A stretch of DNA of 64,000 nt. Origin: a virus. Below, piece by piece: positions 2,313 to 21,616 of this stretch (the stretch's first letter is position 1; each line of letters opens with the position of its first letter). The notes beneath the pieces are model-generated. The model was not told the DNA's origin. It saw only the letters and a list, made by a program, of their open reading frames with translations, and did no database searches. Made by a program: the position numbers and the translations under genes. Where the stretch lies: positions 160,001 to 224,000 of IMG/VR virus record IMGVR_UViG_3300010224_000001. One strand, given 5' to 3'.

Positions 2313-3860
2313 ATGAATCCTAAGCTTTTACTTATCAGCGCAATCACACTGCTCTTTCGAGAAAGTCAACAAGTCGGTCATACCAATAACTCTGCAGAAC
2401 TAGTACGACAAGTTGTTGATGAAGTAAAGGCGCCTGAAGTTTCGCTAGGACGTGAAATTCATGATTTGCATACTGAAGTGTTAATGGGTCTTCGTGACAC
2501 TGCCTTCTATATGGCAACACTTCCCTATAATCATCAGTATGAAATCAACGAAATTCTCCAGCGTCTCAAAATCAACTGCGGTGCAGATGAAACGACGTAT
2601 GATGCATTGGTTGATGGCATCTCTCAAGAGTTGTCCGAGAATGCGTTAAAACGCACAGTTCTCAACATTCAAAAGCAAATTCGGAATTACTTCCGTGAAA
2701 AGGAGATCACTCAAGTAATTAGCCAAGCTTTTCAGAAACTTAAGTTTAATAAAGCCAAAATCCCCAACATGAACGAGTTCGTTCAAGAGGTTGTGGGTAA
2801 GCTTTCTGAGTACCAATCTGATAGCACAAACGCTGACCCAGCAGTCGTGGGTGAAGTTGACTTTGCGAATGTCAATGAAATCAGTGCCATTTTCAAGACT
2901 GCTAAAGAAGCAGACAACGATGAATGGACGATGACGACTGGCTTGCAAGGTTTGAATCGTGCATTAGATGGTGGCTTTCGGCGTGGTGAAAGTTGGGTGT
3001 TTGGCGCACTACCTCACAACTTCAAAACCGGTATGTCACTGACTATCTTTAGACAGATAGCCATGTATAACGTGCCGAAGATGCGGGATCCTAATAAGAA
3101 GCCGTTGTTGGTCCGTATCACATTTGAAGATAGCTTGAAAGAAAACTTCACGTTCATGTATCAGCAGATGTACACGAACGAGAATCGTATCAAACCCGAT
3201 ATGGCTGCTGTCACAGACGAAGACATGGCGGCGTATGTGATGGAACGCTTAACTCGTACTGGCTACCATATTCGCATGGTGGAAGTCAATCCGAGTGGCT
3301 GGACTTATTTGGATATTCAGAATAAGATCCTGCAATATGAAGCCGAAGGTTACGAAGTACATCTGTGTGCAATTGACTACCTGCCGATGATCCCGACTAC
3401 GGGTTGTATCATGACGACGATTGGTTCAGATATTCGCGATCTGTATCGTCGTATGCGTAACTTCTTTAAAGCACGCTGGACCACGATGATTACCCCACAT
3501 CAATTGTCGATGGATGCGAAGAAGTTAATCCGTGATGGTCATGGCGATCTAGTTAAACTGGTGCTCAATAAAGGCATGTACGACGCGTGTGGACGTCTTG
3601 ACCAAGAAGTTGATGGTGAGATGTTCCAGCATATCGAATACGTCAATAACAAGCCTTTCTTGACCTTCCAGCGTGGTAAACACCGTAAGACCCGTCAGAC
3701 ACCTCTCGTTGATCGTTACTTTGTCTTGACGTTGCATGAAATCGGCGACTTGTACGACGATATCGACGGTGAAGACACGACGCTGCGTCGTCCTGGCGGT
3801 GGTAAGATTGGTTCAGCAACGGAAACTCCGTACTGGGAATTTGATGCTCAACCTGCGTAA
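2313..3860 (+). CDS. dnaB: DnaB-like replicative helicase (phiKZ gp118-like)
   Basis: TTGLQGLNRALDGGFRRGE, Walker A variant ALPHNFKT, Walker B AIDY, TPHQLS, QEVD, QRGKHR. Confidence 0.85.
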   Translation: MNPKLLLISAITLLFRESQQVGHTNNSAELVRQVVDEVKAPEVSLGREIHDLHTEVLMGLRDTAFYMATLPYNHQYEINEILQRLKINCGADETTYDALVDGISQELSENALKRTVLNIQKQIRNYFREKEITQVISQAFQKLKFNKAKIPNMNEFVQEVVGKLSEYQSDSTNADPAVVGEVDFANVNEISAIFKTAKEADNDEWTMTTGLQGLNRALDGGFRRGESWVFGALPHNFKTGMSLTIFRQIAMYNVPKMRDPNKKPLLVRITFEDSLKENFTFMYQQMYTNENRIKPDMAAVTDEDMAAYVMERLTRTGYHIRMVEVNPSGWTYLDIQNKILQYEAEGYEVHLCAIDYLPMIPTTGCIMTTIGSDIRDLYRRMRNFFKARWTTMITPHQLSMDAKKLIRDGHGDLVKLVLNKGMYDACGRLDQEVDGEMFQHIEYVNNKPFLTFQRGKHRKTRQTPLVDRYFVLTLHEIGDLYDDIDGEDTTLRRPGGGKIGSATETPYWEFDAQPA

Positions 3861-4006: not shown

Positions 4007-6070
4007 ATGTTTAGCGCATTACGAAAGATGGTTGGTAATATCAACATCGTGCAAAGAGGCAATCAAATCGTCATCGAGGGCTTACCTCGAGACGTGTATA
4101 TGAACGACATATACAAAATCTGGAAGACGTCTAAAATCGAAGACTACATGTTTACAAGAAGTACAAGTTCTTCGGTGATCTTCCATCAATTCTTTTTACC
4201 TGATGTTCTTTACACGCTAGAACAAGTTGTTGCTAACCCAAGACGTGGTACTGGTTTTAATTATCGTGTACTTCGGAAAGTCATTGATCAAATCAAGAAT
4301 GAAACATGGATGAGTCGGATTTACCGACAAGATACTCCAGACATCCTTGACTTTGACCAGTTGAATCTTCTCAAGTATAAACCCTTACCCCACCAAGCAG
4401 AATTCTTCCGTGTCTATAATGACATTGTGCCGCGTTATGGGCTGTTAGGACTGATGTTAGGTGCTGTGCCAGGTTCTGGTAAGACCTTAGCGTCGATCAT
4501 GCTCTCGTGCATGTTAAAGAACGATGTGACGATCATCATTTCGCCTAAGAACGCAATTGATCGGGTTTGGCAAGACACAGTCGCAACCTGCTTTAAAGAA
4601 CCAGTCGATTATTGGGTCTCTTCGATGAAAGAAGATCCAACGCCTGGTAAGCGCTTCTACATCTTCCATTACGAGCAATTAGACCGCGCTATTGAGTTCT
4701 TCACGAAACACAAACCAGTTAACCCAATGCTGGTGTTGGATGAATCGCACAACATGAATGAAGCCGATTCACTACGCACGCAACGTTTTGTGGAACTGGC
4801 TCGTGATGTGTTGAACTCGAAGCACGTGTTGTGGGCGTCTGGCACGCCGATCAAAGCGATTGGTAATGAAGCGATTCCGTTCTTACGTTGCATCGATCCG
4901 CTGTTTGATAGCTTTGCGGAAGAACGCTTCCGTAAGATCTTTGGCAAGAACGTGTCTCGTGCTGTCGACATTCTGCGTAACCGGATTGGTTTCTTGACCT
5001 TTAAGGTTGAGAAGATTGCGGTGATTAAGAATGAGGTTACGACGTACACTAAAGATATCGAGATCCCCAACGGGAAGATGTATACGCTCGACGTAATTAA
5101 AGAAGACATGAAACAGTTTGTGACTGAGCGCATGAACTATTACAAGTCAAACTTTAAGAAATACGAAGAGCAGTATAACCGCGGTCTTAAGTTACATGAA
5201 TCGATGATTGAGCGTGATAAAGCTAAGCGTGCTCAATTTGACATCTATCGTAAATACATTGCTATCATCCGTCGTGGCTTTGATGCTGCGACTATGAAAG
5301 AACAAGCGATGTTCTGTAACAAGTACGAGCTGAAAGAAATCATTCCGTTCTTGGCACCAGGTATCAAAGAAGAATTTAAGAATGCTCGTTCAGTGGTTAA
5401 GTACTACGATTTGAAAGTGCGTGGTGAAGCCTTAGGTCGTATCCTGGGTAAGAAGCGTGCTCAGTGTCACGTTGACATGGTGCCTTACTGTAACCTGGAA
5501 GAAGAGATCGATAACGCACGGAAGAAGACGGTGATCTTTACTAGCTATGTCGAAGTGGTGGACAAGATCTGCGACATGTTAGAAGCCAGTGGTTACAAAC
5601 CCTTACGTGTTTACGGTACGACTAATAAAGACCTGCCGAATATTGTTAAGACGTTTGGTGACGATGAAGATGCTAATCCGTTAGTCGCTACGTTCCAATC
5701 GCTCTCAACCGCTGTTCCACTCGTGATGGCATCTACTGCAATCATGATGAATAGTCCGTTCCGTATTCATGAATTAGAACAAGCTACTGCGCGTGTCGAT
5801 CGCATTGGTCAAGACGGCCCAGTGACAATTGTGAACATGTTCTTGAAGACCGGTACAGAAGGCAACATCTCGACTCGTTCGGGTGATATCCTGGAATGGT
5901 CCAGAGAGGCTGTAGATGCGATTTTGGGCCGAAATACTGACGTAGGTGATCTCGTTATGGAAGCAGTCGAATATGACGTCTGTAAGGCCCCGTATAGCGT
6001 CGAAAGAGAACTGTTTAATATCGACTATGTACCAGAAATGCCAGTAGCTCCTGTGTGGTCTGCTTGGTAA
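4007..6070 (+). CDS. SF2 (SNF2/DEAD-like) helicase
   Basis: GAVPGSGKT, LDESH, SGTP, QATARVDRIGQ motifs; ATG at 4007 preferred over TTG at 3944. Confidence 0.85.
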   Translation: MFSALRKMVGNINIVQRGNQIVIEGLPRDVYMNDIYKIWKTSKIEDYMFTRSTSSSVIFHQFFLPDVLYTLEQVVANPRRGTGFNYRVLRKVIDQIKNETWMSRIYRQDTPDILDFDQLNLLKYKPLPHQAEFFRVYNDIVPRYGLLGLMLGAVPGSGKTLASIMLSCMLKNDVTIIISPKNAIDRVWQDTVATCFKEPVDYWVSSMKEDPTPGKRFYIFHYEQLDRAIEFFTKHKPVNPMLVLDESHNMNEADSLRTQRFVELARDVLNSKHVLWASGTPIKAIGNEAIPFLRCIDPLFDSFAEERFRKIFGKNVSRAVDILRNRIGFLTFKVEKIAVIKNEVTTYTKDIEIPNGKMYTLDVIKEDMKQFVTERMNYYKSNFKKYEEQYNRGLKLHESMIERDKAKRAQFDIYRKYIAIIRRGFDAATMKEQAMFCNKYELKEIIPFLAPGIKEEFKNARSVVKYYDLKVRGEALGRILGKKRAQCHVDMVPYCNLEEEIDNARKKTVIFTSYVEVVDKICDMLEASGYKPLRVYGTTNKDLPNIVKTFGDDEDANPLVATFQSLSTAVPLVMASTAIMMNSPFRIHELEQATARVDRIGQDGPVTIVNMFLKTGTEGNISTRSGDILEWSREAVDAILGRNTDVGDLVMEAVEYDVCKAPYSVERELFNIDYVPEMPVAPVWSAW

Positions 6071-6887: not shown

Positions 6888-8546
6888 ATGCGCAATAAGT
6901 ACGTGCAACCAACACCTGCTAAAAAGGCAGCTCTGGAATCCGACGATGTGAAGCTGAATGCTCCTGAATCGGAAGATAACCGCCCCATGGAACCGGCTTC
7001 GGCTGATAACGCCGAGAATGGTTCTGGCAAAGGTGGTGAGCAAGAAGTCAAAGTGACTGCTCCGGAAACCGAAGACAATCGTCCGACCGAACCCGCAGGT
7101 GATCCTGACGCTGCTCCGATGAGCAACACGTCTGGCGAAGAAACCGTTAAAGTCACGCAAGGTGAAACGGATGACGACCGTCCTCTGGAAGCTGAACAAA
7201 CGGCTAACACCGAAACCGATGCTGATGCTAACACCGGTGCTCTGGATGTGACTGACGTTGAATTCGAAATCATCGAAAACGCTGTCGACGAAGCTGACGT
7301 TGAGATCGAACAGAAACAACAGATCAATAACGCCGTTGAAGTCTTCGAAGGTTATCAAGAGACCATCCGTCATCTGCTGGCTACCGAATCATTTAGCGAT
7401 GCTACTGCAAATGTTCTGCAACAAGCGATTGCTGTGCAGATGCGTACGGTTAGCTCTGGCATTCCACATGTCTCGCTGGAAGACTTTGGTGGTTCCCTTA
7501 CAGCTAAAGCTCGTCATGAACAAATGCTGGGTCAGCTGATTCTTGAAGGCGCCGCGCTGAACACGATCGCGCAATCCTACGTGGTTAACTGGAAGCAAGG
7601 TTTCCGTGCCTATGCTGATCTGTTCCGTAGTAATGCCGGACTGGTTAAGAAGTATAAAGCTAAGTTGATGGATGCGCAGAAAGAGTTTGATGCTAAGAAA
7701 GCTAAATTTGGCACCGGCACGCATCAGGTTAGCTTGCTTCGCTTTAGTAGCATTTACGCTACTGGCGATGGTCGAGTTAAGGATATTATTGCGGCTCTGA
7801 CTGCAGACTTTGCGATGTCGCGTTATGCACTCGTAGAATACCCAACTAAGGTTCTGCAAGTTCTCACCAAGATTAACAGCATTGTTAGTTCTGGTAATAT
7901 GTCGACTCCTGACTCGGCAGCTAAAGTAATTGCCTCGATCGAAGCTATTCCGCATCCTGGCGATCTGTTTGATAAGAAGTTTATTGAAGGCAAATCTTAC
8001 CTCACCCAAGTCAATCTGGATGTCGACGTTAGCAAGACACGCGAATCTGTTGAAATCAACGGTAAACGGTTTGATAAACTGGCTAACCTGGCCACCAGGA
8101 AGAAAGTTGTTGAAGCTGGCGCGTGGGGCGCTAGAGCTGCTAACGGTTTCGGTAACGACGGCGCTGTCGCTGATGAAATCGTCGGTAAAGGTGTGGCTGG
8201 TATGACTACCGATCAAATTGGTAAACTGATTAAGTTCGGTATGGAATACTTGCATCTGGTTGAACAGAACATGGAGCTGGTCAAGAAATCGCAAAGCTTG
8301 ATGGATTCGATCAGTAGTGGTCTGAGGAAGATGGAAGATTCGATCGACAGAGGCGCTGAGAAAGCTATCGATCGTGCTTTCAATCAGATCTCTGACTTTG
8401 CAAGCAATGTAATGTTTGCTAACTTCATGAGTCCGGCTCGCAGTGAAGTCAAGCGCGCGATTAAGATCGCTTCTGCAAATCAGATGATGGCTCTGCGAGT
8501 CATTTACAATGCTGAACGTGGTGCGACTCAGAAACAAGCTAAATAA
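6888..8546 (+). CDS. Virion internal head/inner-body protein with acidic propeptide
   Basis: Acidic N-terminus with ALE/ATE/SLE prohead-protease sites (HVSLEDF); typical of phiKZ-like ejection proteins. Confidence 0.65.
   Translation: MRNKYVQPTPAKKAALESDDVKLNAPESEDNRPMEPASADNAENGSGKGGEQEVKVTAPETEDNRPTEPAGDPDAAPMSNTSGEETVKVTQGETDDDRPLEAEQTANTETDADANTGALDVTDVEFEIIENAVDEADVEIEQKQQINNAVEVFEGYQETIRHLLATESFSDATANVLQQAIAVQMRTVSSGIPHVSLEDFGGSLTAKARHEQMLGQLILEGAALNTIAQSYVVNWKQGFRAYADLFRSNAGLVKKYKAKLMDAQKEFDAKKAKFGTGTHQVSLLRFSSIYATGDGRVKDIIAALTADFAMSRYALVEYPTKVLQVLTKINSIVSSGNMSTPDSAAKVIASIEAIPHPGDLFDKKFIEGKSYLTQVNLDVDVSKTRESVEINGKRFDKLANLATRKKVVEAGAWGARAANGFGNDGAVADEIVGKGVAGMTTDQIGKLIKFGMEYLHLVEQNMELVKKSQSLMDSISSGLRKMEDSIDRGAEKAIDRAFNQISDFASNVMFANFMSPARSEVKRAIKIASANQMMALRVIYNAERGATQKQAK
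6960..7195 (+). repeat. Three degenerate peptide repeats (APESEDNRPMEPA / APETEDNRPTEPA / GETDDDRPLEAE)
   Basis: Visible in the translation and in DNA at ~6960, ~7059 and ~7161. Confidence 0.75.
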
Positions 8547-17986: not shown

Positions 17987-18409
17987 TTACCTTTTCTTGT
18001 TCGTAAAAGTTGATTCAGACAGACTAAAAGAGCGCACAATGCGTTCGAAACTACCCTCAGGGGTAATCTCAAACACAAAGGCGTAAATCGTTTTGGGGCG
18101 CTGTATGTTCTCGCAAATGCGTAACACCAGCTGTCCTGGAATGTTGGACATCCAAGTCAAAGACGCTTTGATCTCGGCTTCTTCGTTATCAAGCTCTTTC
18201 TTGATGCTGAAAACGTAAGTCGCAATCGTATCGGTAATTTGTTGTTTGAGCGCTTTGTTAGGAGTGCAGGTGCGAATCAAATCTGCTAGTGTATCGGCAG
18301 TGGTCCACATCACTGCATTTTGCATGTAGAGGAAAATGCCAGGATGTTCATTTCCTCGGGTAGCACGCATGAAGTTTCTAAACCAGATCGGTTGTTCGAG
18401 CGAATACAT
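17987..18409 (-). CDS. Hypothetical protein
   Basis: ORF in operon. Confidence 0.65.
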   Translation of the reverse strand: MYSLEQPIWFRNFMRATRGNEHPGIFLYMQNAVMWTTADTLADLIRTCTPNKALKQQITDTIATYVFSIKKELDNEEAEIKASLTWMSNIPGQLVLRICENIQRPKTIYAFVFEITPEGSFERIVRSFSLSESTFTNKKR

Positions 18410-18444
18410 GTAAGCTTCTTTCTTGAGTTTTTAATAAACAGGAG

Positions 18445-18558
18445 TCCTCTGGCTGACTCTCTAATGGTAATCTGGCATTCCTCAATTTCAGGATTCCTGC
18501 TGCTGATCGCTCCACTACACGATTCACTTGACAGGCTAGCTGGGTCTACCCGGCCCTT
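18445..18558 (-). ncRNA. Putative TnpB omegaRNA (reRNA) scaffold plus guide
   Basis: Minus strand gggccgggtagacccagctagcctgtcaagtgaatcg...cgatcagcagcaggaa resembles IS605/IS1341-type reRNA scaffolds, directly 3' of tnpB. Confidence 0.65.
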
Positions 18559-18574
18559 GTAAAGTTAAAGTAAT

Positions 18575-19753
18575 TTATCTAGCGAAGCTAAATTCTGAAG
18601 CCTTGTTGTAAATATTCATAGCTGCCACTACATCAGCATTGTTAGAATATCCGCAATCAATGCAACAAAACTGTGATTGTGTCTTACGATTCTCTTTAGC
18701 TACAAAGGAACAGCTAGGACAAGTTTGACTAGTGTGTTTAGCGTTTACAACAGCTAAATAAGAACCATACCAACCACACTTGTAGGAGATTTGTCTTAAT
18801 AGCTCACCCCAACCTTGCTGTAGGATAGAGCGATTAAGTCCTCGTTTCTGAGCCACATTCCTACCAGGCTGTTCAATCGTACCTCTAGAACTCTTTGACA
18901 TTTGAGTAATCTTCAAATCTTCCATAATCACCGCGGCGTGGTTTTTGCTGATGTAAGATGAAAGTTTGTGAAGAGTATCATTACGCATGTCGGAAATACG
19001 TTTATGTTGCTTTGCTACTTTAAGTTTTGCTTCGTCGTGATTACGAGAACCTTTGACTTTACGAGTAAATCTTTTCTGTAAAATCTTGAGCTTTTCATAA
19101 GTTTCTCTCATTCGAGGATTATGATCAGTTATCTTGACTAGAGATCCATCAAAGGTAGTTGCTAGATGAACAATTCCAACATCAACTCCTATCGACTTAT
19201 TTGAAGTATTATATCTTTTCTCAATCTCGATTTCGCACAGAACGTTCGCATACCAGTGACCGGCTCTGTGCGAGATGGTAATTGACTTCGGAATACCTTC
19301 TAACGATCTATCTTTTCTATACTTAACTAACCCTACCTTTGGTAGCTTTAAATGCTTTTCTCTAATTTCGAAATATTGAGGAATCCTAAATGAATCACTA
19401 ATACCTTTCTTTTTGAATTGAGGGTAATTAGATTCTTTTCTAAAAAAGCGTTGAAAAGCCATACCAAGATTAGCAAGACTCTGCTGAAGGACTTGTCCAG
19501 AGCAATCGTTTAACCAGAAAGTATCAGGATTTTTCTTAAGTAACACTAACTCATTGCTTAATGAAAATACATTTACACTGATACTTTGCTGATGAAGTTC
19601 TTTCCAGCGCGCTAACCCCCAGTTATAAACAAAACGAGAACAACCGGAGAATTGCTTGAATATTTTCTCTTGTGCTGCATTACAGTCAAGTTTATATTTA
19701 AACGTTTTGTTGATTTTATTGACCCTTCTAGAAGGGTCTGATGAAACTATCAT
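18575..19753 (-). CDS. tnpB: TnpB RNA-guided endonuclease (IS200/IS605 family), no tnpA nearby
   Basis: N-terminal HTH (FSGCSRFVYNWGL), RuvC-I GVDVG, RuvC-II IMEDL, Zn finger CPSC...CIDC, RuvC-III NADVVAAMNI; AAGGAGG RBS. Confidence 0.92.
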   Translation of the reverse strand: MIVSSDPSRRVNKINKTFKYKLDCNAAQEKIFKQFSGCSRFVYNWGLARWKELHQQSISVNVFSLSNELVLLKKNPDTFWLNDCSGQVLQQSLANLGMAFQRFFRKESNYPQFKKKGISDSFRIPQYFEIREKHLKLPKVGLVKYRKDRSLEGIPKSITISHRAGHWYANVLCEIEIEKRYNTSNKSIGVDVGIVHLATTFDGSLVKITDHNPRMRETYEKLKILQKRFTRKVKGSRNHDEAKLKVAKQHKRISDMRNDTLHKLSSYISKNHAAVIMEDLKITQMSKSSRGTIEQPGRNVAQKRGLNRSILQQGWGELLRQISYKCGWYGSYLAVVNAKHTSQTCPSCSFVAKENRKTQSQFCCIDCGYSNNADVVAAMNIYNKASEFSFAR

Positions 19754-19795
19754 CTTTACCTCCTTTGAAGAAAGATAATCGTAGTGTATATGTTA

Positions 19796-19814
19796 GTAAT
19801 ATATACTTGAAAAA
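19796..19814 (-). promoter_or_regulatory. phiKZ-type early promoter upstream of tnpB
   Basis: Minus strand TTTTTCAAGTATATATTAC contains the exact TATATTAC early consensus of phiKZ. Confidence 0.7.
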
Positions 19815-19835
19815 CTATCTAGTCTAAAAATGAAC

Positions 19836-19885
19836 AAAAAAAAGAATAGCCTAAGCCATTCTTTTTGTAGACCCGAAGGTCTACG
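19836..19885 (-). terminator. Tandem hairpins/terminator
   Basis: gtagacc-ttcg-ggtctac, then aaaaagaatggc-ttag-gctattcttttttt. Confidence 0.7.
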
Positions 19886-19891
19886 TTTATA

Positions 19892-20056
19892 TCAAGCACA
19901 CCACCAAGGACGTTTCCATGGATCGTTAGAACGAGCACAGATGAAAGCTTCGGTGCGTTCAATGGCGGTGGGTTCCTTACCAGTCTTTCTGCGGTAAGTG
20001 TCCAAGCACTCGCGATAAAGCGTGGCAGCTTTACCTTTGAGTTGAATGATTGCCAT
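19892..20056 (-). CDS. Small hypothetical protein (54 aa, not in ORF track)
   Basis: MAIIQLKGKAATLYRECLDTY...PWKRPWWCA, GGGAG RBS. Confidence 0.6.
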   Translation of the reverse strand: MAIIQLKGKAATLYRECLDTYRRKTGKEPTAIERTEAFICARSNDPWKRPWWCA

Positions 20057-20067
20057 TAGACTCTCCC

Positions 20068-20328
20068 TTATCCTGAAACCACGTTGAAAGTCTTATGAAA
20101 GTCCACAGCGGTGTAGACCTCCGTCAGTTCTTTGTTGGGCATCTTGACAACGAAGTTGCCAGGACGAACCATCACTGCATCACGGAGCATGTCCATCTGG
20201 CTGGCGTTGACCCATGCAGTGCCATTCTTATCCGTAGTGACAAGACGACACTTTACGCCTGGCTGCCATTCCCAGGCTTCACCCTGAACAACTATGGGTT
20301 CTACCTTGAGCTTTGCAGTAGTTTTCAT
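20068..20328 (-). CDS. Hypothetical protein
   Basis: Start reassigned to MKTTAK after AAGGA. Confidence 0.65.
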   Translation of the reverse strand: MKTTAKLKVEPIVVQGEAWEWQPGVKCRLVTTDKNGTAWVNASQMDMLRDAVMVRPGNFVVKMPNKELTEVYTAVDFHKTFNVVSG

Positions 20329-20329
20329 T

Positions 20330-21616
20330 TTAGTCCTTCTTATTAGGGTCCGAGGTAAAATTACCTTCTTCGGTTTCACCATCATCGATGTAGGTAGTTT
20401 TATCGGACAACATTTCATCTGAACCAGGATCGTTATCAGCAAACTTCACAAGCAGTAATTCATCATCGCCAATGTATGGAATGAGGCGACTTTTCAGATC
20501 ATCCCTGGTAAACTTGACAGTTTCTGGAAGACCTTTAACGACCTCACTGATAAGTTCCTGACGATGTTTCAGACTACCATCATACTCCATAACCTCATCG
20601 CCTTCGCGCGGAATATGTTTTTCCGCGTTAGCCATGAGTTGCTCCTGCTCCATCCTTGCAAACTTCTGCTTGAGAAGATCACCCAAGCTAGGTGGATTAC
20701 CTTGTTTGTCTTTAGGACGAGTAAGCTCAGCTGGAGATTCGAGAAACGCGCCAGCAACTGCGCTGTTGCATAACTTAATTGGTTTTCCATCTTCTCCGGT
20801 TGGTGGAAATGAGAACATTCCCGGAATGAATGGACTGTCAGAAGTATCGTCAGATGCGACAAGATCTGCGGTGACATCGTAGTCACGATAACCGCTAGGA
20901 ACATACTTGTCAGCGTCATCGAAAATTACAACCGCACGAGGAATGGAATCCAAAGCATTCATGGATTTCATGATGTCTCCGTCATATTCTTCCTGCGCTG
21001 TATAAGCTTTCATGCGGCACTTCGGAATAAGACGTTTGACAACTTGATGAAGCTTCTTCTTGCTAACATGGTAACGATGCGGGCCATCAAATGTTTTGGT
21101 TGGCTCAATGACTTTGACGATATGCGTGTCGAAAATCATACCGACGAGTTTCTCATGATTCACAAGCTCGTCAGGTTTCATGTACTTATTAGAAACGTAC
21201 ATGACCAAATCATCGAAGGCACTTACATCGTAATAGGAAGGGTGCTTGATCCAACCGTATTGAATCGCCAGGTAATTCTCTACCTCCCAGAATTCTTTGA
21301 AGAAAGCACTGTCGTCACCGTTATCGATCATTGCCACACCTGGAGCACGGTGAGTGATCTCCAACACATTCAAAATGCTATATGTTTCTGGTTCAGCATT
21401 TTCTTTTGGAGTGTACCAAATATGCGCCATCGGTTTGCCGGTGATGACGTAATTGTCCGGCGTGTTCTTACTCAGCTTCTGAACTTCCAGCTTGATGTGT
21501 ACAGCGTCAATTACCTTTCCATCAGAATGGCTGTATGCTTTAACCACAGCGATTGTACCTTTGCTGAAGAAGGCAGGCGAGAACTTACGACGATACGGAT
21601 TAAATTTGTTGCTCAT
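20330..21616 (-). CDS. Hypothetical protein (paralog family D)
   Basis: FSPAFFSKGT...ITHRAPGVA...SKKKL shared with 21662. Confidence 0.75.
   Translation of the reverse strand: MSNKFNPYRRKFSPAFFSKGTIAVVKAYSHSDGKVIDAVHIKLEVQKLSKNTPDNYVITGKPMAHIWYTPKENAEPETYSILNVLEITHRAPGVAMIDNGDDSAFFKEFWEVENYLAIQYGWIKHPSYYDVSAFDDLVMYVSNKYMKPDELVNHEKLVGMIFDTHIVKVIEPTKTFDGPHRYHVSKKKLHQVVKRLIPKCRMKAYTAQEEYDGDIMKSMNALDSIPRAVVIFDDADKYVPSGYRDYDVTADLVASDDTSDSPFIPGMFSFPPTGEDGKPIKLCNSAVAGAFLESPAELTRPKDKQGNPPSLGDLLKQKFARMEQEQLMANAEKHIPREGDEVMEYDGSLKHRQELISEVVKGLPETVKFTRDDLKSRLIPYIGDDELLLVKFADNDPGSDEMLSDKTTYIDDGETEEGNFTSDPNKKD

Follow-up and report, generated by a model that had tools for sequence, protein, structure and literature searches.

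The minus-strand sequence immediately 3' of tnpB in this phage is the omegaRNA gene of an intact TnpB, and it is a compacted natural derivative of the IS605-type omegaRNA. The window analysed here is a 64-kb stretch, bases 160001-224000 of a 322,570-b virus record (G000, the window's own phage) that has direct terminal repeats and is rated complete. We hold the identity, anatomy and boundary of the RNA described below with good confidence. The fuller explanation, in which this compacted omegaRNA serves a TnpB module with a proposed life cycle of homing or retention, is in our judgement probably correct, with a wider margin of doubt. What is distinctive about the locus is the pairing of a nuclease-intact TnpB with an omegaRNA that has lost precisely its transposase-related parts, an arrangement conserved in three related large phages.

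The protein encoded by tnpB (Table 1) matches OrfB_IS605 (8.8e-22), Cas12f1-like_TNB (1e-19) and HTH_OrfB_IS605 (2.9e-14) in Pfam, all above the cut-off, and aligns with the ISDra2 TnpB chains 8h1j and 8bf8 at an E value of 3e-54. In the ISDra2 alignment the GVDVG motif, the xEDL/xEHL motif and the aspartate of NAD/DRD fall in register, and the three catalytic residues are invariant among 18 relatives, as are the four zinc-finger cysteines in the relatives compared. Thus the TnpB is intact and, as its residues predict, nuclease-competent. A protein search returned 2611 TnpB relatives, with top identities of 70, 69, 62 and 58% ahead of a large plateau at 40-45%. Pattern scans gathered 159 related loci, 79 viral and 80 metagenomic (153 of them with a locatable tnpB stop), and the single one of these above the plateau was a locus at 58%, L002, in the sibling large viral contig G002. 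A nucleotide search of GenBank phages with the window locus gave no match, and scans of IMG/VR for close relatives, using TnpB alone or the neighbouring proteins, returned neither a relative nor an empty allele of the window locus. Contigs from two sequencing runs, of 252 nt (20044-20295) and 243 nt (19804-20047), contain no joints and both lie outside the omegaRNA.

The omegaRNA was identified with a covariance model (CM) built from 12 canonical full-size relatives, the window sequence being left out. The CM match lies just 3' of tnpB and covers positions 1-140 of the 140 in the model (39.4 bits, E 6.8e-9), which bears out an earlier note that had assigned an omegaRNA to the adjoining TnpB from the letters of the sequence; the strings quoted in that note are all present on the minus strand where it had placed them. 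The scaffold begins 13-19 nt past the tnpB stop and thus does not overlap the ORF. This is the sole CM match in the window, and the 322,570-b genome as a whole contains no other, so no array adjoins the nuclease, and no repeat family involving the scaffold was found in 18200-20300. Rfam has nothing at the omegaRNA locus, its three matches all being under the gathering score and elsewhere. Folding energy by itself is not significant (MFE -24.9 kcal/mol, z -1.27, with 25 of 200 shuffles folding equally well), and the support for the scaffold is therefore comparative.

That comparative support comes from a family with a well-defined architecture. RNAalifold, applied to an alignment of 12 non-identical relatives whose omegaRNA lies entirely downstream of the ORF, returned four stems with 38 pairs, 25 of which show compensatory changes. 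The CM then gave 51 matches from 46 sources, 50 of them untruncated. With a pseudoknot added by hand, 95.8% of cells are paired, against 40-50% when the partners are slid and none of 500 shuffles reaching the observed value, the alignment having been fitted to the model for the four stems and the pseudoknot being absent from it. All five pairs of stem 1 carry double-sided changes (99.6% of cells paired), and the model helices that make up stem 2, helices 3-6, are 80-98% paired. The pseudoknot joins bases 2-5 of the stem 1 loop to a UGUC that lies 3-6 nt from the 3' end; over 50 sequences, 96% of the cells in its four pairs are paired, and three of the four change on both sides. An equivalent arrangement is described in parts of a study of the ISDra2 complex (PMC10097598), in which the scaffold has four stems and a pseudoknot that pairs positions -5 to -3 with the stem 1 region, a geometry matched by both the family and the window.

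Table 1. Positions of the features discussed, in window coordinates unless a sibling locus is named.
Feature	Coordinates	Strand	Remarks
tnpB	18575..19753	minus	392-aa ORF; RuvC triad intact (D191, E278, D374)
omegaRNA scaffold	18472..18562	minus	CM match; structured core 18556-18472
Stem 1, GGGCC/GACCC	18542..18556	minus	CM alignment; 5-nt loop GGGUA (18551-18547)
Pseudoknot 5' strand	18550-18547	minus	stem 1 loop bases
Stem 2	18496..18535	minus	outer CCUGU/GCAGG (18535-18531/18500-18496), inner UGAAUCG/CGAUCA
Mini-hairpin UCCU-GAAAUUG-AGGA	18479..18493	minus	basal 4 bp of the 9-bp TnpA-type right-end hairpin
Pseudoknot 3' strand UGCC	18477-18474	minus	-6 to -3 from scaffold end; aligned by the CM to family UGUC
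Predicted guide, 16 nt, ATTACCATTAGAGAGT	18456..18471	minus	inferred from scaffold end 18472; 20 nt reaches 18452
Terminator-like hairpin GAGUC-N8-GACUC, then CUGUUUAUUA	18442..18459	minus	starts at guide position 13
Sigma-70-like promoter TAGACT-17-TATATT	19798..19826	minus	consensus scan; upstream of tnpB
TATATTAC	19796-19803	minus	upstream of tnpB
Two terminator-like hairpins	19839..19885	minus	between tnpB and upstream 54-aa ORF, at left-end position
Weak direct repeat sites	window 19770-19790 / 18460-18472; L002 ~2925-2945 / 4227-4240; L162 both scaffold sides
Compact scaffold in sibling G001 (L162)	L162:3396-3488 = G001:C1:13430-13522	minus	complete, own distinct guide, without tnpB
G001 locus syntenic to the G002 element (L333)	L333:2262-2402	minus
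Proteins compared with G001/G002	2313-3860 and 6888-8546		DnaB-like helicase, 552-aa protein

Read from 5' to 3', the RNA would consist of stem 1 with its pseudoknot loop, stem 2, a 2-nt linker, a 4-bp hairpin stub and the tail AUGCCAG, whose UGCC would close the pseudoknot. Stems 1 and 2 match the model base for base, and stem 2, aligned to helices 3-6, is also present in the MFE fold. Stem 1 contains one C.A mismatch (18553/18545); across the 50 sequences the lone non-pair at stem 1 pair 10:18 comes from the window. An 80-aa ORF on the plus strand (18320-18562) runs antisense to the omegaRNA and guide region; it is unsupported and probably spurious.

The position of the 3' boundary matters for everything downstream of it, and here our analysis departs from the earlier note, which had placed the scaffold end near 18465, given the scaffold a length of about 95 nt, and begun the guide at 18464 (TTAGAG...). 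The family ending that the note had described, GGAATC followed by a large hairpin and GATGTCAA, is real: the word G[AG]NGTCAA occurs close to the tnpB stop in 130 of 153 loci, and in the relatives GGAATC leads into a hairpin of 7-9 bp with a TTTA-type loop, which is followed by GGATGTCAA, with divergence afterwards. Among IS605-type relatives, pairs of copies in differing contexts stop exactly after GTCAA, and TTTAT preceded all seven left boundaries examined. The CM aligns the window tail GAAUGCCAG to the family terminus GGAUGUCAA, which puts the scaffold end at 18472 instead of at about 18465. BLAST homology to the sibling loci L002 and L162 covers 18558-18473 and stops at 18473, and in the three-way alignment of window, L002 and L162 the sequences diverge after GAAUG[CU]CA. 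Counted from 18558 to 18472, the scaffold is thus 87 nt long. With its end at 18472, the guide is predicted to start at 18471 (ATTACC...), 7 nt upstream of the earlier start. The predicted right boundary in the window is based on homology, not on an insertion junction.

The same alignment bears on the pseudoknot. The earlier note had seen in GGTA/TACC a compensatory pair; the homologous partner of the loop is instead the TGCC at 18477-18474. In the window, which reads GGAATGCCAGATTACCA at 18481-18465 on the minus strand, UGCC pairs with G18550, G18549, U18548 and A18547 as G:C, G:C, U:G and A:U. Since UGCC already pairs with the loop GGUA, a compensatory TACC is unnecessary. In the family the second pseudoknot pair is A:U in 37, G:U in 11 and G:C in 2 of 50 sequences, the window being one of the two with G:C, and the third is C:G in 40, U:G in 7 and U:A in 1 of 50. 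The window pseudoknot therefore lies on the ordinary path of family covariation, with no new partner required.

We considered whether the earlier register, with the scaffold running to about 18465, a GGUA:UACC pseudoknot and the guide TTAGAGAGTCAGCCAGAGGA (18464-18445), might be correct after all. The TACC 8 nt downstream could pair with the loop too, its UACC (18469-18466) forming four Watson-Crick pairs where UGCC forms three and one G:U, and both registers leave the pseudoknot strand some 2-6 nt from the guide, as in the ISDra2 complex described in part of PMC10097598. The shifted register is thermodynamically possible, and thermodynamics does not decide between the two. The comparative evidence speaks against it: the CM puts GAAUGCCAG, not the TACC segment, on the invariant family terminus; both siblings lose similarity at the equivalent of 18473, with no second pairing block; the flank in G002 that is common to a TnpB-less locus (see below) starts right after the equivalent of 18472; and two pseudoknot positions have G:U in 11 and 7 of 50 sequences, so frequent a pair that UGCC needs no compensation. 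We regard the 18465 register as very unlikely. The predicted guide and the earlier 20-mer have 13 nt in common, and the predicted one adds 7 TAM-proximal bases. The correction is of practical consequence, as a guide in the earlier register would miss these first 7 seed bases. By analogy with ISDra2 TnpB and TldR, in the portions of PMC10097598 and PMC10705468 that describe them, we infer a guide length of 16 nt.

Compared with its relatives, the window scaffold has undergone two separate reductions. The earlier note had called it a minimal omegaRNA, and so it is: among the 50 untruncated CM matches from 46 sources, those in the window, L002 and L162 measure 91-93 nt and all 47 others fall between 123 and 201 nt. 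The 79 viral loci have 81 untruncated CM matches, of which only that in L002 is shorter than 123 nt. The first reduction affects the canonical right-end hairpin (model helix 10), where 24 model positions have shrunk to 6 nt and the distal 5 bp and the loop are lost. The collapse of the TnpA-type hairpin had been recognised in the earlier note, which took the hairpin to be absent; the stem has in fact gone from 9 bp to 4 bp, and the stub that persists covaries in the two siblings, as UCUC/GGGA in L002 and UCUU/GAGA in L162, pairs 3 and 4 changing on both sides and staying paired. The second reduction, missed at that time, is the loss of internal stem 3, for which 38 model positions are replaced by 4 nt. 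Where relatives read CAGCAGGAA-CCCACC, stem 3 and then GUAGGAA-UC, the window passes directly from CAGCAGGAA to UC. Stem 3 is cleanly missing, as if by deletion between the two GGAA repeats. In addition, the terminal TCAA of the family reads CCAG in the window, which accordingly has neither the subterminal right-end hairpin nor the TCAA cleavage motif in the form seen in IS200/IS605.

The same compact form is found in two sibling large viral contigs, G001 and G002, which were retrieved with a sequence pattern specific to it. G002 (218,701 b) encodes a 390-aa TnpB, 57-58% identical to that of the window, followed by the same compact scaffold; G001 (221,460 b, rated 82% complete) also has the scaffold. 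The three minimal scaffolds are 73-84% identical to one another with pair-preserving changes, and their flanks are unrelated. The three phages are related but distant, the DnaB-like helicase being 39-41% identical and a 552-aa protein 32% identical between them. The TnpB identity between G000 and G002 exceeds both values, and either the nuclease is better conserved than these two core phage proteins or it was transferred between the phages at a later time.

No TnpB was found anywhere in the 221-kb, 82% complete G001 record, and its scaffold at L162 stands without the gene. By eye, the sequence upstream of it contains a left-end-like stretch that resembles the region upstream of tnpB in G002, together with what appear to be the first tnpB codons, and L162 can be read as a copy that has undergone an internal deletion. 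Elsewhere in G001, the locus L333 is syntenic with the surroundings of the G002 element; there a terminator hairpin and a left-end-like stretch run to CACATAT and are followed directly by the homologue of the G002 right flank, without the tnpB 5' UTR, tnpB or scaffold. The homology of L333 to the G002 flank begins no more than a few bases from the G002 scaffold end (L002 4228). It has a global score of 30, against 9.7 +/- 3.8 for shuffles, of which 1 in 2000 reaches it; the same L333 stretch shows no resemblance to the G002 5' UTR (score 4). Because of this homology, the sequence after the G002 scaffold is ordinary phage flank, found also in a relative that has neither tnpB nor scaffold. The earlier note had set against its own reading the case of a guide that is simply the element's own flank, and for the sibling G002 the homology fits that case. 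The comparison of G002 with L333 supports the register that we transfer, as a prediction, to the window. Given the left-end-like part that it retains, L333 may be a deletion scar instead of a naive site.

At all three scaffold loci, the first 10-12 nt or so after the scaffold resemble the sequence just past the conserved CACATAT upstream of tnpB (weak direct repeat sites in Table 1). A post hoc, position-anchored test of this repeat gave cis p values of 0.06, 0.01 and 0.14, with all three cis scores above all six trans scores, and aligning each guide freely and locally with the 150 nt upstream gave no significant result (p 0.69, 0.05 and 0.14). In G002, the left- and right-end hairpins are alike and both about 4 bp long, CCTT-GATTG-AAGG and TCTC-GATTTTA-GGGA (L002:2895-2925, 4205-4225), a likeness that hints at parallel shrinkage of the two ends of this element.

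We next consider how such a module might move. A Y1 transposase (PF01797) gave no match in the complete 322,570-b genome, in a search whose control was positive in 6 of 14 genomes, and none was found in the G001 and G002 records. The canonical relative L084, by comparison, carries a divergent Y1 tnpA. No canonical left-end motif was found in 18400-20400 (GCCGTAAAAC with up to 2 mismatches, GGAGATAT with up to 1), and neither a left boundary nor an empty allele of the window element was found. With no tnpA in the genome, no left-end motif and an altered TCAA, the module should be unable to move by the usual peel-and-paste route.

The sequences around the module contain candidate expression signals. 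The terminator-like hairpin over the guide (Table 1) is one of 6 such sites found by consensus scan in 1.9 kb, against 1.3 expected from shuffles. The scan for sigma-70-like sites gave 2, against 4.3 expected, and the promoter candidate upstream of tnpB is weak by itself; the stretch ATTACTAACATATACAC is similar to sequence that precedes the sibling elements. The word TATATTAC was tried as a recurrent early-promoter motif and is unconfirmed, since its count in the 322-kb genome is 7 where about 16 would be expected, and exact k-mers from upstream of tnpB show no notable repetition. The first bases of the guide (18460-18472) form a 13-nt inverted repeat, 92% complementary, with the beginning of the upstream 54-aa ORF (20048-20060); 11 inverted pairs of this quality, itself included, occur in 2.1 kb, and it is probably due to chance.

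What the guide is directed against is approached here through sequence collections. The earlier note had seen no match to its guide in the window, and this extends to the whole genome: no match to a guide of either register was found in the phage's own genome at up to 4 mismatches in 20 or up to 3 in 16. The 20-mer guide has no exact match in a set of one genome from each of 185,579 species, 18-mers of both registers have none in IMG/VR, matches in GenBank phages are at chance level (E = 6), and plasmids contain none. Complementarity to a host promoter, a trait of TldR, was likewise without a guide match in the collections searched.

The most likely reading of these data is a transposase-independent TnpB-omegaRNA module whose guide is its own right flank and which acts in homing or retention. 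It is favoured because the three elements have three unrelated guides and because the guide of G002 is local flank. The specific role in homing or retention is offered tentatively, as somewhat less than an even bet, on the model of the retention mechanism that Meers et al. describe in part of PMC10055086. We suggest that tnpB and its 3' UTR would be transcribed from their own promoter and that TnpB would trim the transcript to scaffold plus guide, a self-processing of the 3' UTR that is reported for TnpB (PMC10278001). The resulting RNP would cut TAM-bearing DNA next to the sequence that is normally at the right flank of the element; its substrates would be the TnpB-less alleles that related phages bring into a co-infection, or genomes from which the cassette has been lost. 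Once such cassette-less DNA is cut, recombination would tend to copy the cassette or to keep it in place. Transcription, self-processing, the 3' end, the 16-nt guide and the TAM-adjacent cleavage are all steps that we infer. Some decay is possible, given the C.A mismatch in stem 1 and the unexceptional fold energy.

A bolder version of this reading treats the compact cassette as a transposase-independent, RNA-guided homing element, in effect a gene drive, among related jumbo phages, which would have shed the omegaRNA parts used only by TnpA and kept the 87-nt core. It would spread as TnpB cuts cassette-less alleles in co-infection, with recombination to follow, and the weak direct repeat at CACATAT would be a trace of integration or of the policing of its own deletion. 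We consider this possible but unlikely.

The module might, on the other hand, be a domesticated weapon or regulator with a fixed guide against the host, one of its defence elements or a competing phage, like TldR with the nuclease kept. Phage-borne TldR likewise has lost tnpA and recognisable LE/RE and has a short scaffold of 97 nt with a 16-nt guide, as given in part of PMC10705468; the module in the window has its own promoter-like and terminator-like signals, and its compact scaffold is conserved in three related large phages. However, no target for the guide was found in the species genomes, IMG/VR, GenBank phages or plasmids, although one may exist in the host; three unrelated guides in three elements fit a guide taken from local flank better than a conserved target, and the G002 guide region is ordinary flank common to a TnpB-less relative. 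We consider such a domesticated function improbable.

Equally improbable in our estimate is that the locus is a decaying, functionless relic of an IS605-type insertion, readable as such and with no active RNP or target. Such a relic would account for the erosion of both ends and the loss of TCAA, the stem 1 mismatch, and the terminator-like hairpin that lies over guide positions 13-30, and G001, with its solo scaffold and scar-like locus, shows that deletion of the cassette occurs. Against this, the 392-aa ORF is intact and retains every catalytic and zinc-finger residue, changes in the scaffold preserve pairs, and TnpB is more conserved than two core phage proteins. Moreover, the same two deletions are common to elements whose TnpB proteins are 57-58% identical, which implies that the compact form is long-lasting.

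The module that we favour, a nuclease with a guide drawn from its own flank, has clear kinship with the IS200/IS605 TnpB-omegaRNA systems (ISDra2, PDB 8h1j and 8exa; L084). The protein family and catalytic triad are the same, the omegaRNA is located 3' of tnpB, and stem 1, stem 2 and the guide-adjacent pseudoknot are shared. That IS200/IS605 TnpB takes its guide from the flank right after the scaffold is established, as the relevant parts of PMC10705468 and PMC10097598 describe. In contrast to these systems, the window element lacks tnpA, the left-end motif and internal stem 3, its right-end hairpin is reduced to 4 bp, and TCAA has become CCAG; and whereas the 123-201-nt scaffolds of canonical relatives often overlap the ORF, the 87-nt scaffold lies wholly outside it. 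Absence of tnpA in itself is common, as the majority of bacterial TnpB genes are without it according to a portion of PMC10055086.

The resemblance to the TldR proteins of temperate phages, in phage carriage, in the lost transposase and ends and in the short scaffold, stops at the protein and the target. In TldR, RuvC is inactivated and the guide matches a host promoter, flagellin promoters being the aim of TldR guides; in the window the triad is intact, the nuclease is thus kept, and no target was found. A parallel for the RNA is the engineered ISDra2 pair Trim1/Trim2, from which the 5' region and stem 3b have been taken out with activity maintained or improved (PMC10097598, in the part that treats them). 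The deletion in the window removes the stem analogous to ISDra2 stem 3b, but it is natural, and the hairpin needed by TnpA is shortened as well. L162, a scaffold without a tnpB gene in its record, is reminiscent of the protein-less PATEs, the omegaRNA-bearing forms of which need TnpB in trans (Meers et al., in the relevant part of PMC10055086). Unlike PATEs, L162 keeps a remnant of the tnpB start and is without full-size end hairpins, and it looks like an internal deletion, not a mobilisable mini-transposon. In contrast to transposon-CRISPR intermediates and Cas12 arrays, the window has no repeated scaffold and no repeat-spacer array. We found no description of an omegaRNA without the right-end hairpin in a jumbo phage in the part of the literature covered, and the supplementary tables of the TldR study might hold similar scaffolds.

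The locus has the character of a natural experiment that separates the nuclease parts of an IS605-type omegaRNA from its transposase parts. Stem 1, stem 2, the pseudoknot and the 4-bp stub, the nuclease parts, have been kept and covary; the distal right-end hairpin, the TCAA end and the left end, the transposase parts, have been lost. The natural 87-nt scaffold and its 392-aa nuclease are, in addition, a practical starting point towards compact genome editors. Should the homing reading hold, RNA-guided nucleases would join the selfish homing genes that shape jumbo-phage genomes.

A last observation concerns the flanks of the three scaffolds. In L002 (4245-4252) and L162, an exact GTAACATC is found in small hairpins 7-13 nt past the scaffold end, and the terminator-like hairpin of the window sits at the same distance past its scaffold as these GTAACATC hairpins do in the siblings.
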